The translations under genes and the position numbers were made by a program. Below, in pieces: positions 3,525 through 34,240 of a DNA stretch of 64,000 nt. The notes beneath the pieces are model-generated. The model did no database searches. It was given only the letters and a program-made list of their open reading frames with translations, and was not told the DNA's origin. The DNA is taken from the NCBI RefSeq assembly GCF_024223415.1, contig NZ_CP100500.1, one strand, 5' to 3'. The stretch's first letter is position 1. Each line of letters begins with the position of its first letter. The stretch is from Escherichia coli. GTDB taxonomy: Bacteria > Pseudomonadota > Gammaproteobacteria > Enterobacterales > Enterobacteriaceae.

Positions 3525-3592
3525 TGAACTGCACCCCAAATGTTGGACATAATCTGACATCTGAAGGTGCAGTTTATGAAACATTCATTTGA

Positions 3593-4096
3593 AGTAAAAC
3601 TGCCGCTGTAAATCATTACCTGGCCGGTCATGCAGGCATCATTTCTACGGCAAAACTCTTTCAACTTTCTCACACCAGCCTCTCACACTGGATTAATCTT
3701 TTTCTTCTTCACGGTCCTCAGGCACTGGATTGCAGACACAAGCGTAGCTATTCTCCTGAAGATAAACTTTGCGTGGTTCTTTATGCTCTCGGGCATTCTG
3801 AGTCTCTACCCCGGGTAGCTGCCCGGTTTAACATTCCCAGCCACAACATGGTTAAAAACTGGATAAAAGGCTACCGCAAATCTGGTAATGAGGCCTTTAT
3901 CAGGCGCAGGAAGGAGAAAAGCATGACCCGTTCTGATGATACCCATGAAAACGAGGCAAACATGACGCCGGAAGAGATGAAGAATGAGCTGCGTTATCTT
4001 CGCGCAGAAAATGCATATCTGAAAGCCATGCAGGAGCATCTCCTGGAAAAAAAGCGCCAGGAGCTGGAGAAAAAACGAAAGTCATCCAGAGCCTGA
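3593..4096 (+). CDS. IS3-family transposase OrfA (HTH); frame open from 3593 but no in-frame ATG, ORF track starts it at GTG 3773; likely 5' frameshifted
   Basis: Translation ..VNHYLAGHAGIISTAKLFQLSHTSLSHWINLF..RVAARFNIPSHNMVKNWIKGYRKSGNEAF.. plus leucine-zipper-like C-terminus; upstream ATG near 3576 is in another frame and stops after 11 codons. Confidence 0.6.
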   Translation, partial: SKTAAVNHYLAGHAGIISTAKLFQLSHTSLSHWINLFLLHGPQALDCRHKRSYSPEDKLCVVLYALGHSESLPRVAARFNIPSHNMVKNWIKGYRKSGNEAFIRRRKEKSMTRSDDTHENEANMTPEEMKNELRYLRAENAYLKAMQEHLLEKKRQELEKKRKSSRA

Positions 4097-4200
4097 AGTG
4101 CGGACACTGCCAGTCTGACCTGTTAAAGGCTGCAGGGCTGGCCAGAAGCACGCTGTACTACCAGCTGTCACTGCAGAAGGCTAAGGACAAGTATGCTGAT

Positions 4201-4955
<755 letters not shown>

Positions 4956-15650: not shown

Positions 15651-15781
15651 TACCGCCTCTTATCGATTCAACTTGTTGATAATTGTAGCGGAAAAGTGAG
15701 GAAGAAGAACTAATTGCTGTGAGAGGTATTGCCTGAGGTGGATGAGCAGACCTGCCCGAAAGCAGATCTGCTGCGGCTTGA

Positions 15782-29200: not shown

Positions 29201-32353
<3,153 letters not shown>

Positions 32354-32372
32354 TACAACGTGTAATCACTAA

Positions 32373-32394
32373 GGCCGCGTAAGCGGCCTTTTTT
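32373..32394 (+). terminator. Rho-independent terminator of acrAB
   Basis: ggccgcgtaagcggcc hairpin plus T6 about 20 nt after the acrB stop. Confidence 0.75.
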
Positions 32395-32898
32395 ATGCAT
32401 AACCTACGAACATTAAGGAGTAATTGAACCACCAACTCAGGATCTCATACGAAAACCAGTATTAACCACGGATAAAATTCATAAAAAATACTGATTGTTA
32501 GTTAATTTATATTAAGTAGCGCTAATAGATTTAATAATCCATAATCATTTAGAGGCTATTCTTAATTATTTGCGGTAATTCTTTATTCATTCCTCGGTTA
32601 TTACGTCATATTCAGAGCAATCCTGGTATTAGTGTCACCAATTTCATCTGGCGATAATCCTGAAATGTTATGAACAGTTCGAGCAAACTGCTTTTACCTG
32701 CTGCGGGTTGGTGCTAGTATGAAAAAGTGAGCCCTGTCCCGCTTCCTTCCTAATTGTAATTTTTCGTAATAATGCGATGAAAACCTGCAAAGAGTGGCTT
32801 ATAGTTAAGCTAACAAACGAGAGGGCAAGTCCAGGTCAGTAAGTTTTTTCCATCCCGAAAGGTGTCCGTTAGTTCAACCGCTAAGAAGGGGACGCGTT

Positions 32899-33273
32899 AT
32901 GGATGAATACTCACCCAAAAGACATGATATCGCACAGCTTAAGTTTCTCTGTGAAACCCTGTATCATGACTGCCTTGCAAACCTTGAAGAAAGCAATCAT
33001 GGCTGGGTAAACGACCCAACCTCGGCGATCAACCTCCAGTTGAATGAACTGATTGAGCATATTGCGACCTTCGCACTTAATTACAAAATTAAGTATAATG
33101 AAGACAATAAGCTCATTGAGCAGATCGACGAATATCTGGATGACACCTTTATGTTGTTCAGTAGTTATGGTATTAATATGCAGGATCTTCAGAAATGGCG
33201 GAAGTCAGGTAATCGACTATTCCGTTGTTTTGTCAATGCGACGAAAGAGAATCCTGCGAGTTTATCTTGTTAG
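32899..33273 (+). CDS. tomB: Hha toxicity modulator TomB (YbaJ), 124 aa
   Basis: ORF track; recalled protein; directly upstream of hha. Confidence 0.93.
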
Positions 33274-33298
33274 AATTATTACAACCATGGGTAGAAGT

Positions 33299-33517
33299 AT
33301 GTCCGAAAAACCTTTAACGAAAACCGATTATTTAATGCGTTTACGTCGTTGCCAGACAATTGACACGCTGGAGCGTGTTATCGAGAAAAATAAATACGAA
33401 TTATCAGATAATGAACTGGCGGTATTTTACTCAGCCGCAGATCACCGCCTCGCCGAATTGACCATGAATAAACTGTACGACAAGATCCCTTCCTCAGTAT
33501 GGAAATTTATTCGCTAA
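33299..33517 (+). CDS. hha: Haemolysin expression modulator Hha, 72 aa
   Basis: C-terminal 72 codons of ORF 33053..33517 read [72 protein letters not shown]. Confidence 0.93.
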
Positions 33518-33688
33518 TAAATAATTCGCTTTCGGAGCTATAACCGGCTGTTTATTAAGAATTTTATACTTTTTCGCCATGAAGACATACCCTATGTGAT
33601 CTTTATCACACAGATGTAATGGGAACGTTCTCTTCACTGACTTTTCGTCTTACTGTGTTGCCGCATTTTCAGCAACCGGAGGTCAGTA

Positions 33689-34240
33689 ATGAGCACAGAA
33701 AAAGAAAAGATGATTGCTGGTGAGTTGTATCGCTCGGCAGATGAGACGTTATCTCGCGATCGCCTGCGCGCTCGTCAGCTTATTCACCGATACAATCATT
33801 CCCTGGCGGAAGAGCACACATTACGCCAGCAAATTCTCGCTGATTTATTCGGTCAGGTGACAGAGGCTTATATTGAGCCAACGTTTCGCTGTGACTATGG
33901 CTATAACATTTTTCTCGGTAATAATTTTTTCGCCAACTTCGATTGCGTGATGCTTGATGTCTGCCCTATTCGCATCGGTGATAACTGTATGTTGGCACCA
34001 GGCGTTCATATCTACACGGCAACACATCCCATCGACCCTGTAGCACGTAATAGCGGTGCTGAACTGGGGAAACCCGTCACCATCGGTAATAACGTCTGGA
34101 TTGGCGGACGCGCGGTCATTAACCCTGGTGTGACCATTGGTGATAACGTCGTGGTAGCCTCAGGTGCAGTTGTCACAAAAGATGTCCCGGACAACGTTGT
34201 CGTGGGCGGTAATCCAGCCAGAATAATTAAAAAATTGTAA
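33689..34240 (+). CDS. maa: Maltose O-acetyltransferase Maa, 183 aa
   Basis: ORF track; hexapeptide-repeat C-terminus. Confidence 0.94.

Follow-up and report, generated by a model that had tools for sequence, protein, structure and literature searches.

The acrB/tomB-hha junction of an Escherichia coli genome: a conserved control region with an 87-nt tomB leader and a candidate RcsB-type box

The window, a 64-kb stretch of an E. coli genome analysed here as a whole, contains the junction between acrB and the small genes tomB (ybaJ) and hha. The gap between acrB and tomB spans 32354-32898 (545 bp, GC 0.383). As the first-pass annotation stated, tomB and hha point the same way, with 25 bp between them. 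The features of the junction are as follows.

29204-32353, + strand: acrB coding sequence, a 1049-aa open reading frame that aligns to K-12 acrB (b0462); the upstream neighbour
32371-32396, + strand: acrB intrinsic terminator, AAGGCCGC-GTAA-GCGGCCTT followed by TTTTTT (terminator scan)
32397-32670, no strand assigned: strongly AT-rich tract (GC 0.318), untranscribed in published start-site maps
32474-32540, no strand assigned: AT-rich blocks AAAATCATAAAA..CTTATTG..GTTTATTT..TATAAT-like, moderately conserved
32612-32625, no strand assigned: RcsB-box-like pseudo-palindrome TCAGAGCAATCCTG, a candidate site some 200 bp ahead of the tomB start site
32670-32717, + strand: 15-codon open reading frame ATGAACAGTTCGAGCAAACTGCTTTTACCTGCTGCGGGTTGGTGCTAG, translated as MNSSSKLLLPAAGWC and a stop, judged non-coding
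32712-32720, + strand: extended -10-like element TGCTAGTAT, a possible distal promoter
32756-32770, + strand: CpxR-type box GTAAT-TTTTC-GTAAT, 7 bp upstream of the -35 element
32777-32805, + strand: tomB-hha sigma-70 promoter, -35 ATGAAA (32777-32782), 17-bp spacer, -10 TATAGT (32800-32805) (promoter scan)
32812-32898, + strand: tomB 5' UTR, 87 nt, start site A at 32812 (T-1 A+1)
32851-32856, + strand: conserved CATCCC within the tomB 5' UTR
32885-32890, + strand: tomB Shine-Dalgarno sequence AAGGGG, within the 5' UTR
32899-33273, + strand: tomB, 124 aa
33274-33298, + strand: tomB-hha spacer, 25 bp, with a SNP relative to K-12 at 33289 (G/A)
33299-33517, + strand: hha, 72 aa, Cys18 present

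The identity of both proteins is clear. TomB belongs to Pfam family PF10757 (YbaJ; score 220.1 bits, cut-off 25, E = 1e-65) and matches the solved structure of YmoB (2mn2) at E = 2e-50, while Hha belongs to PF05321 (HHA; score 135.3 bits, cut-off 25, E = 8e-40), matches the solved Hha structures 1jw2/2mw2 over residues 1-72 (E = 1.2e-44) and has a single cysteine, at position 18. The K-12 operon (b0461-b0460) and its gap, at 480090-481253 of NC_000913.3, represent the same locus with the same neighbours; TomB and Hha are 100% identical to those found here, and the promoter, the CpxR box and the start site are the same. The comparison of the tomB upstream region with K-12 that had been proposed gives 542 identical positions out of 545, the three differences being SNPs at 32675, 32710 and 32732. 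They cluster within 58 bp, a pattern suggestive of relaxed constraint in that part. The further G/A difference at 33289, in the spacer between the two genes, creates an in-frame ATG at 33287. Of 5426 complete E. coli genomes, 5423 have the gap, 5408 of these at 80% coverage or more. Every one of the 76 other species whose gap is complete keeps the order acrB-gap-tomB-hha, and the gap measures 435-559 bp. It appears highly probable (about 0.9) that the region is the standard core-genome acrB/tomB-hha junction of E. coli.

The gap begins with the acrB terminator, as had been proposed: a hairpin with a G+C-rich stem of eight pairs, six of them GC, and a T run, both kept at about 0.89 identity in an alignment of 77 sequences. 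In the tract that follows, the GC content of 0.318 compares with 0.516 for the whole window; it is the lowest of any 274-bp stretch there, a value reached by just 0.05% of stretches of this length. The AT-rich tract of about 500 bp described in the first-pass annotation is indeed AT-rich, but strongly so over only about 270-350 bp, the last 230 bp or so before tomB having a GC content of 0.452. The tract has the marked AT-richness of H-NS-type DNA, and its description as regulatory DNA agrees with a single table flag, 'HNS', on the tomB-acrB spacer in a genomic-SELEX study (PMC3946193), which is the source for H-NS binding here. The silencing that had been suggested does not apply to the tomB promoter, which is listed as constitutive (PMC3946193) and has thousands of 5' reads at its start site (PMC4488433). 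Within the tract, 32397-32470 is confined to Escherichia, with about 0-10% identity outside the genus in the same alignment, and in strain B19695 an IS1 element is inserted in the tract. The blocks at 32474-32540 have alignment identities of 0.5-0.7 with a nearly invariant ATTG; they might be a binding site for a nucleoid protein or a promoter-like element that is inactive. In Salmonella, the upstream promoters p201 and p622 predicted by BPROM were inactive in GFP fusions (PMC5133643), and these may correspond to the same blocks.

The ATGAAA and TATAGT hexamers found by the promoter scan are those published as the constitutive sigma-70 promoter of tomB-hha (PMC3946193), and TATAGT is present in all 77 aligned sequences. 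The K-12 start site of tomB lies at 480795(-), with a UTR of -87 and the sequence ...cttatagttaagctAaca (PMC4488433 supplement), and the E. coli UTR has been given as 87 nt, that of Klebsiella as 97 nt (PMC3415461 supplement). Coordinate conversion through the K-12 alignment places 480795(-), for which there are two independent published data sets, at position 32812 of the window. The real 5' UTR is therefore 87 nt; the long leader assumed previously is not there, and the remainder of the gap is untranscribed upstream DNA. The one active fragment in Salmonella was p922, which is promoter-proximal (PMC5133643). The single upstream start site and a published RNase E substrate, which extends from -89 to +662 and covers both tomB and hha (PMC4191395), indicate that the two genes are co-transcribed; further start sites have been reported within the operon, 16 and 115 nt ahead of hha (PMC3415461). 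A structured leader for tomB was considered and rejected, as the fold of the UTR is no more stable than that of shuffled sequence (z = -0.15). An anti-Shine-Dalgarno hairpin, in which RNAalifold pairs UCCC with the GGGG of the Shine-Dalgarno sequence, is uninformative because both sides are invariant and covariation provides no evidence either way. Control by PdhR was also discarded: a SELEX peak has been published near K-12 480770, and the predicted box at 480940 fits the consensus at only 8 of 14 positions.

Tandem GTAAA-like pentamers with a 5-bp spacing lie upstream of the -35 element as GTAAT-TTTTC-GTAAT, and TTGTAATTTTTCGTAATA is almost invariant across the 77-sequence alignment. The geometry of box and promoter is strictly kept across these enterobacterial sequences: in 74 of them, exactly 56 bp separate the beginning of the box from the predicted start site downstream. 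The CpxR consensus is said to have been defined by De Wulf et al. in 2002 as tandem GTAAA-N5-GTAAA, and each tomB half-site differs from it by one base (T for A). The direct repeat just upstream of a weak -35 element and the listing in the CpxR regulon are features shared with Cpx promoters: both tomB and hha are in the CpxR regulon of RegulonDB and tomB is in the CpxR iModulon, although the 'direct targets' of CpxR determined by ChIP-exo do not include tomB (PMC7657598). The orthologous Yersinia pair ymoB-ymoA, with YmoB (2mn2) and YmoA (2k5s) as solved relatives, provides a close counterpart. There, CpxR~P was shown by EMSA to bind a CpxR motif located 56 bp ahead of the proximal start site, TSS2, and reporter data support activation (PMC13353760); by this published description, the geometry is the same as in tomB-hha. 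Yersinia differs in having two mapped start sites, at -188 and -106, whereas the E. coli data show one, at -87. Together, these observations suggest that GTAAT-N5-GTAAT would be a CpxR~P site activating tomB-hha.

The 15-codon open reading frame does exist, and the doubt already expressed about its significance was justified; its placement in the leader was not, since it lies 95-142 bp upstream of the mapped tomB start site and consequently is not on the mRNA of the gene it might regulate. It is most improbable that it represents a translated leader peptide or upstream ORF regulating tomB-hha, or an independent small protein. The ATG, equivalent to K-12 480937(-), is kept in 73 of 77 aligned sequences, and the first codons after it are somewhat alike outside Escherichia (M-N/K-x-K-E/D), as a coding frame might predict. 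However, this likeness arises from a conserved DNA motif, ATGAAnnnTAAGG, and conservation extends to third codon positions, a sign of a motif at the DNA level. The frame is located downstream of a strong terminator and its ATG has no Shine-Dalgarno sequence in front of it, the preceding sequence being AATCCTGAAATGTT. Its end is polymorphic within E. coli: codon 14, at 32710, is TGG here and TAG in K-12, so that the frame has 13 codons there and 15 here, and among complete E. coli genomes 3498 carry TAG against 1782 with TGG, meaning that about 64%, K-12 included, stop two codons earlier while TGG is found in about a third. Across 73 Enterobacteriaceae species or sequences its length ranges from 5 to 46 codons and the peptide is not conserved, varying even within Escherichia (MNSSSKLLLPAAGWC, MNSIRQSALAITSSALE, MNRMRQTAFVYVGLMPG). 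A length of 15 codons is at chance level, because the homologous gaps of the 77 sequences (this window and 76 species) hold 921 ATG-initiated ORFs with a median of 10 codons, 33% of which have at least 15. The frame is also absent from the annotation of the current K-12 RefSeq record (NC_000913.3). As for the conserved ATG in the TAAC..ATGAA..TAAGG motif, a coding start, a sigma-28 -10 element and a sigma-70 element were each considered, and none fitted across genera. The frame is judged from its sequence to be a chance one, non-coding and with no sign of being a gene. With the upstream DNA nearly as in K-12 and no indication that the frame is translated, the outcome is essentially the one that the first-pass annotation had named as speaking against its reading of this leader.

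Two other explanations concern the AT-rich tract itself. Its GC content, the lowest in the window, might suggest horizontally acquired, H-NS-silenced foreign DNA or the remnant of a mobile element, and the AT-richness of tomB and hha themselves (GC 0.405), the restriction of the first 74 bp to Escherichia and the IS1 insertions found here in a few strains would fit such an origin. This origin is nevertheless hardly credible: the gap is core genome in E. coli, all 76 other species compared have it in a syntenic position and with conserved blocks that can be recognised, the tomB promoter is active rather than silent, and no mobile-element genes are seen in the ORF list. The tract could also encode an unannotated small RNA on either strand, as a long intergenic region carrying conserved blocks would allow. 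This too is very unlikely, as a scan of 32000-34000 against Rfam at E <= 10 returned only sub-threshold chance matches, the best of which (18.5 bits against a gathering score of 41 bits) overlaps the acrB terminator, PMC3415461 lists no start site between those of tomB and acrA, and the terminator scan found no terminator-like hairpin inside the tract.

A further proposal, which is compatible with the core-genome junction described above and is an addition to it, is that the upstream tract holds a second, condition-specific layer of control, consisting of an RcsB-type site at 32612-32625 and possibly a distal promoter at TGCTAGTAT, which would give a leader of about 170 nt under envelope stress. 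The RcsB box is TN(G/A)GAN4TC(T/C)NA (PMC7913699), and TCAGAGCAATCCTG fits every specified position except the last, the final consensus A being absent in E. coli. In 69 of 77 sequences the core of the box is matched at the homologous place, between 200 and 258 bp ahead of the start site, and the conserved columns of the palindrome are precisely those that the consensus specifies. It is often a perfect palindrome, for example TAGGAATATTCCTA in several Enterobacter species; the Salmonella version is TAAGAATATTCCTG. Validated RcsB boxes at -215 and -161 have been published (PMC7913699), and the second start site of Yersinia ymoBA at -188 (PMC13353760) offers a parallel for the distal promoter. 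Opposite the -10-like element itself (TAnnAT), Citrobacter and Salmonella have TATAAT, TAAAAT or TAACAT, the alignment being loose in other genera. On the other hand, the E. coli supplements of PMC4488433 and PMC3415461 contain no start site for this element, the upstream promoters predicted in Salmonella were inactive (PMC5133643), and the box keeps no fixed distance to either promoter from one species to the next. The motif is degenerate, with an estimated 0.2 chance occurrences per gap in any single genome, and our literature search found no report linking RcsB to tomB or ybaJ. Such a second layer is thus a tentative proposal, somewhat less probable than its absence, and the same reserve applies to the palindrome taken by itself, which by its conservation may function as an RcsB-type operator some 200 bp ahead of the tomB start site.

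tomB-hha shares with toxin-antitoxin systems the arrangement of two small, adjacent and co-transcribed genes with the antitoxin first, here on the same strand with a 25-bp spacer. Reviews class Hha-TomB as a 'type VII' system, one with an enzymatic antitoxin. In Salmonella, it has been described as type II (PMC5133643). The first-pass description of the pair as oxygen-dependent and toxin-antitoxin-like is borne out by PMC5133643 and by the abstract of PMC5155140, both of which use such terms and report growth inhibition by Hha and neutralisation by TomB. According to the literature, Hha is a co-regulator of H-NS whose over-production is toxic; TomB opposes it by way of the oxygen-dependent oxidation of Cys18, the residue given in that abstract as the target of TomB-promoted oxidation. 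The toxin-antitoxin label is debated. In E. coli and Yersinia the Hha-TomB interaction is transient according to the abstract of PMC5155140, whereas in Salmonella a stable Hha-TomB complex and the binding of TomB to p922 in EMSA were reported and the toxicity of Hha is conditional (PMC5133643). Unlike a classical toxin, Hha is primarily an H-NS co-regulator; its neutralisation is reported to be transient and to depend on oxidation instead of a stable complex (abstract of PMC5155140), and the genes are core and syntenic, not mobile. The defence-module character attributed to the locus was not borne out, since PADLOC gave no significant match: its models found none for TomB and only one at E = 0.031 (12.7 bits) for Hha, so that by these models tomB-hha is not part of an anti-phage defence system.

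The locus, an ordinary and well-studied one, is the operon of the small regulators TomB and Hha together with its control region, in which the acrB terminator, the CpxR-type box, the promoter and the UTR form a conserved promoter architecture, all of it published or in RegulonDB. By the present analysis and the published maps, acrAB transcription ends at the conserved intrinsic terminator, and tomB and hha are transcribed together from the single mapped ATGAAA-17-TATAGT promoter, starting at 32812, as a bicistronic mRNA of about 750 nt with the short UTR. Judging from the sequence, its conservation and the E. coli and Yersinia publications, the weak -35 element would be aided by phosphorylated CpxR at GTAAT-N5-GTAAT, and CpxR binding would tie the levels of TomB and Hha to envelope stress. 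The distal AT-rich DNA would serve as untranscribed regulatory or architectural DNA that binds H-NS in published SELEX, with further conserved blocks resembling protein-binding sites, including the RcsB-type palindrome, and the 15-codon frame is a chance reading frame within this upstream DNA.

The importance of these results is limited. The annotation is tidied, one candidate small protein is removed, and the idea of a leader of about 500 nt is corrected to a UTR of 87 nt preceded by upstream regulatory DNA. The conserved RcsB-box-like palindrome is a mildly new item; the remainder was already known. If the palindrome is functional, the Rcs envelope-stress phosphorelay, like Cpx, would act directly on tomB-hha, a link not reported so far, and RcsB might act through antagonism of H-NS or through a condition-specific distal promoter. 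The candidate box thus provides a testable lead on an envelope-stress input to the Hha/H-NS silencing network.

The window is E. coli chromosome, reverse-colinear with K-12 MG1655 449625-511450 (K-12 position = 513607 minus window position), and the region around tomB is laid out as follows.

Gene layout around tomB and hha in the window
29204-32353, + strand, acrB (ORF list)
32354-32898, acrB-tomB gap, 545 bp
32371-32396, acrB terminator, hairpin and T run (terminator scan)
32899-33273, + strand, tomB
33274-33298, tomB-hha spacer, 25 bp
33299-33517, + strand, hha
33689-34240, + strand, maa, the next gene after hha

The first-pass annotation had described this layout, an AT-rich tract and a 15-codon ORF from the sequence, all correctly, but the ~500 bp that it gave to the tract shrinks to about 270-350 bp of strongly AT-rich DNA. 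The GC content is 0.383 for the whole gap and 0.318 for 32397-32670, compared with 0.516 window-wide, which makes the latter the lowest-GC 274-bp stretch in the 64 kb; the ~230 bp adjoining tomB have a GC content of 0.452. The gap is present in 5423 of 5426 complete E. coli genomes, at 80% coverage or more in 5408, while a contiguous copy is missing from 15 of the 5423, and that of strain SCU-316 is 100% identical to the one studied here. No annotated feature falls in the gap among the matches listed or in the current K-12 RefSeq record. Relative to K-12, the gap has substitutions at 32675, 32710 and 32732 and the tomB-hha spacer has one at 33289, with no change in TomB, Hha or the AcrB C-terminus. 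The three gap positions span no more than 58 bp and belong to the least conserved stretch of the cross-species alignment, consistent with relaxed constraint around 32675-32732. A few clinical isolates carry an IS1 copy within the AT-rich tract, as in the tomB locus of E. coli B19695 (L086, ~750-1530, equivalent to window ~32500) and in the database match H30.

Two independent published data sets locate the tomB start site. A 5' RNA-seq supplement places it at K-12 480795, with thousands of reads at -1/+1 (PMC4488433), equivalent to window 32812, and the E. coli start-site table of PMC3415461 contains a single tomB start with a UTR of 87 nt, the next start there being that of acrA; Klebsiella ybaJ has the same promoter and a 97-nt UTR (PMC3415461). 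The promoter scan identified ATGAAA-17-TATAGT at 32777-32805, which puts the mapped start exactly 7 nt beyond the -10, and the constitutive sigma-70 promoter published for tomB-hha has identical hexamers (PMC3946193). The tomB/hha RNA of an RNase E study extends from -89 to +662 and covers both genes (PMC4191395), and in Salmonella, where three promoters are predicted within 1 kb, only the proximal p922 drives GFP (PMC5133643). The start-site maps, the promoter hexamers, the RNase E substrate and p922 thus define a transcribed leader of 87 nt. The ~415 bp from the terminator to the start site are upstream DNA, and the "long leader" proposed earlier is mostly untranscribed. Its description as H-NS-silenced DNA holds in part: the tomB-acrB spacer is marked "HNS" in a table of PMC3946193 and published data make H-NS binding at the locus plausible, but the promoter is active and not silenced. 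Primer-dependent initiation at T-1A+1 in stationary phase has also been published with the tomB promoter as a model (PMC4488433), and T32811/A32812 are kept in the window. The first 105 nt of the transcript are no more stably folded than shuffled controls (z = -0.15). In the alignment fold, UCCC pairs with GGGG of the Shine-Dalgarno sequence, a pairing neither supported nor excluded because both sides are invariant.

The tomB loci of 80 GTDB species were fetched, and the complete acrB-tomB gaps of 76 were aligned with the window, giving 77 sequences.

Footprints in the 77-sequence alignment, from acrB to tomB
32371-32396, acrB terminator, conserved
32397-32470, 74 bp, Escherichia only
32474-32540, AT-rich blocks, moderately conserved
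32612-32625, pseudo-palindrome
32753-32770, TTGTAATTTTTCGTAATA, almost invariant
32777-32805, -35 and -10 hexamers, TATAGT in 77/77
32812-32898, UTR, Shine-Dalgarno sequence invariant and CATCCC conserved

TTGTAATTTTTCGTAATA includes a direct repeat, GTAAT-N5-GTAAT, and in 74 of the 77 sequences the distance from the start of this repeat to the predicted start site is exactly 56 bp. In the Yersinia orthologue ymoBA, a CpxR motif likewise placed 56 bp before the proximal start site is bound by CpxR~P and increases promoter activity (PMC13353760). RegulonDB assigns both tomB and hha to the CpxR regulon, and the CpxR iModulon includes tomB (PMC7657598). The CpxR-box arrangement at tomB is known biology, here reproduced at the sequence level. 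The blocks at 32474-32540 read AAAATCATAAAA, CTTATTG and GTTTATTT, followed by a TATAAT-like hexamer, with TTGTTT-16-TATAAT as the Klebsiella version, and may be the upstream BPROM-predicted promoter that is inactive in Salmonella.

At 32612-32625 the palindrome reads TCAGAGCAATCCTG and agrees with the RcsB homodimer box of the literature, TN(G/A)GAN4TC(T/C)NA (PMC7913699), at all specified positions but the last. In 69 of the 77 sequences a core match is located 200-258 bp before the start site, and in three others, whose lineage has a shorter gap, at -141. As a rule the gap contains no second match, and the match is often perfectly palindromic (TAGGAATATTCCTA, TAAGAATATTCTTA). The conserved columns are those specified by the consensus, and E. 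coli differs from other genera only at N positions. The distance is not unusual, since boxes have been validated at -215 and -161 (PMC7913699). The motif is degenerate, its distance to the promoter varies among species, and full-text searches found no published link of RcsB to tomB or ybaJ. This putative RcsB-type box, perhaps new, is a lead and not a finding. Further downstream, a -10-like TAnnAT (TGCTAGTAT, 32712-32720) has aligned counterparts in Citrobacter and Salmonella and is reminiscent of the second start site in Yersinia, at -188; the E. coli start-site data (PMC4488433, PMC3415461) contain no start at this element.

The 15-codon ORF (32670-32717, MNSSSKLLLPAAGWC) sits between the acrB terminator and the start site, 95-142 bp upstream of the latter, and no Shine-Dalgarno motif precedes its ATG (AATCCTGAAATGTT). 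Codon 14 is TGG in the window and TAG in K-12. Using 55-nt megablast queries centred on the variant base, where a mismatch leaves no 28-nt seed, the TGG allele was counted in 1782 genomes and TAG in 3498, two disjoint sets that together account for 5280 of the 5426. The ATG is retained in 73 of 77 sequences; the frame downstream runs from 5 to 46 codons with unrelated peptides, even within Escherichia, and a DNA motif, TAAC-N3/4-ATGAA-N4-TAAGG, is conserved around the ATG, third codon positions included. The median length of ATG ORFs in the homologous gaps is 10 codons, with 15 or more in 33%. Position, lack of a Shine-Dalgarno motif, the TAG/TGG polymorphism, the unconserved peptide and the ordinary length all mark the ORF, as judged from sequence, as a chance frame of polymorphic length within the species, bearing out the doubt already attached to it. 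The DNA motif (window 32660-32690) is well kept outside Escherichia (e.g. the tomB loci L019, L039 and L056) and degenerate in E. coli; neither a promoter nor a known operator fitted it.

TomB belongs to Pfam YbaJ (PF10757, E = 1e-65; solved relative YmoB, 2mn2) and Hha to Pfam HHA (PF05321, E = 8e-40; solved relatives Hha, 1jw2/2mw2/4icg, and YmoA, 2k5s). PMC5155140 describes a transient, oxygen-dependent interaction in which TomB/YmoB promotes oxidation of Hha Cys18, the single cysteine, which is kept here; according to PMC5133643, the two proteins form a stable type II complex and toxicity is conditional. The toxin-antitoxin label given to the pair is thus a literature one and not uniform, and the defence character is unmatched, as neither protein hit a defence-system model. 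Extra 5' ends occur 115 and 16 nt upstream of hha (PMC3415461; window ~33184, inside tomB, and ~33283, in the spacer), and RNase E cleaves near the tomB 3' end and the hha 5' end (PMC4191395), so that the coupling of hha to tomB may be incomplete. At 33070-33099 there is also a promoter-like TTCGCA-18-TATAAT. Position 33289 is G here and A in K-12, changing ATA to ATG at 33287-33289, in frame and four codons upstream of the hha start, from which an MGRS-extended Hha could in principle be made. No Shine-Dalgarno motif precedes this ATG, and RefSeq keeps the usual hha start in SCU-316.

The window also departs from K-12 elsewhere. A 1.4-kb insertion between copA and ybaQ (3525-4955) encodes an IS3-family transposase (an HTH_28 ORF at 3773-4096 and an ORF with HTH_21 and rve at 4201-4923). 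Upstream of copA, 1-818 has no match to the K-12 copA-glsA junction and is a rare accessory junction; 80% or more of 1-900 is shared by just 16 of the 5426 complete E. coli genomes, several of chicken origin, where its annotation is 'hypothetical protein'. Between adk and hemH (15727-15781) there are 53 bp versus about 157 bp in K-12 (497820-497978), probably a variable repeat (REP-type) element. The tomB-hha locus itself is ordinary, with a regulatory anatomy that is already published.
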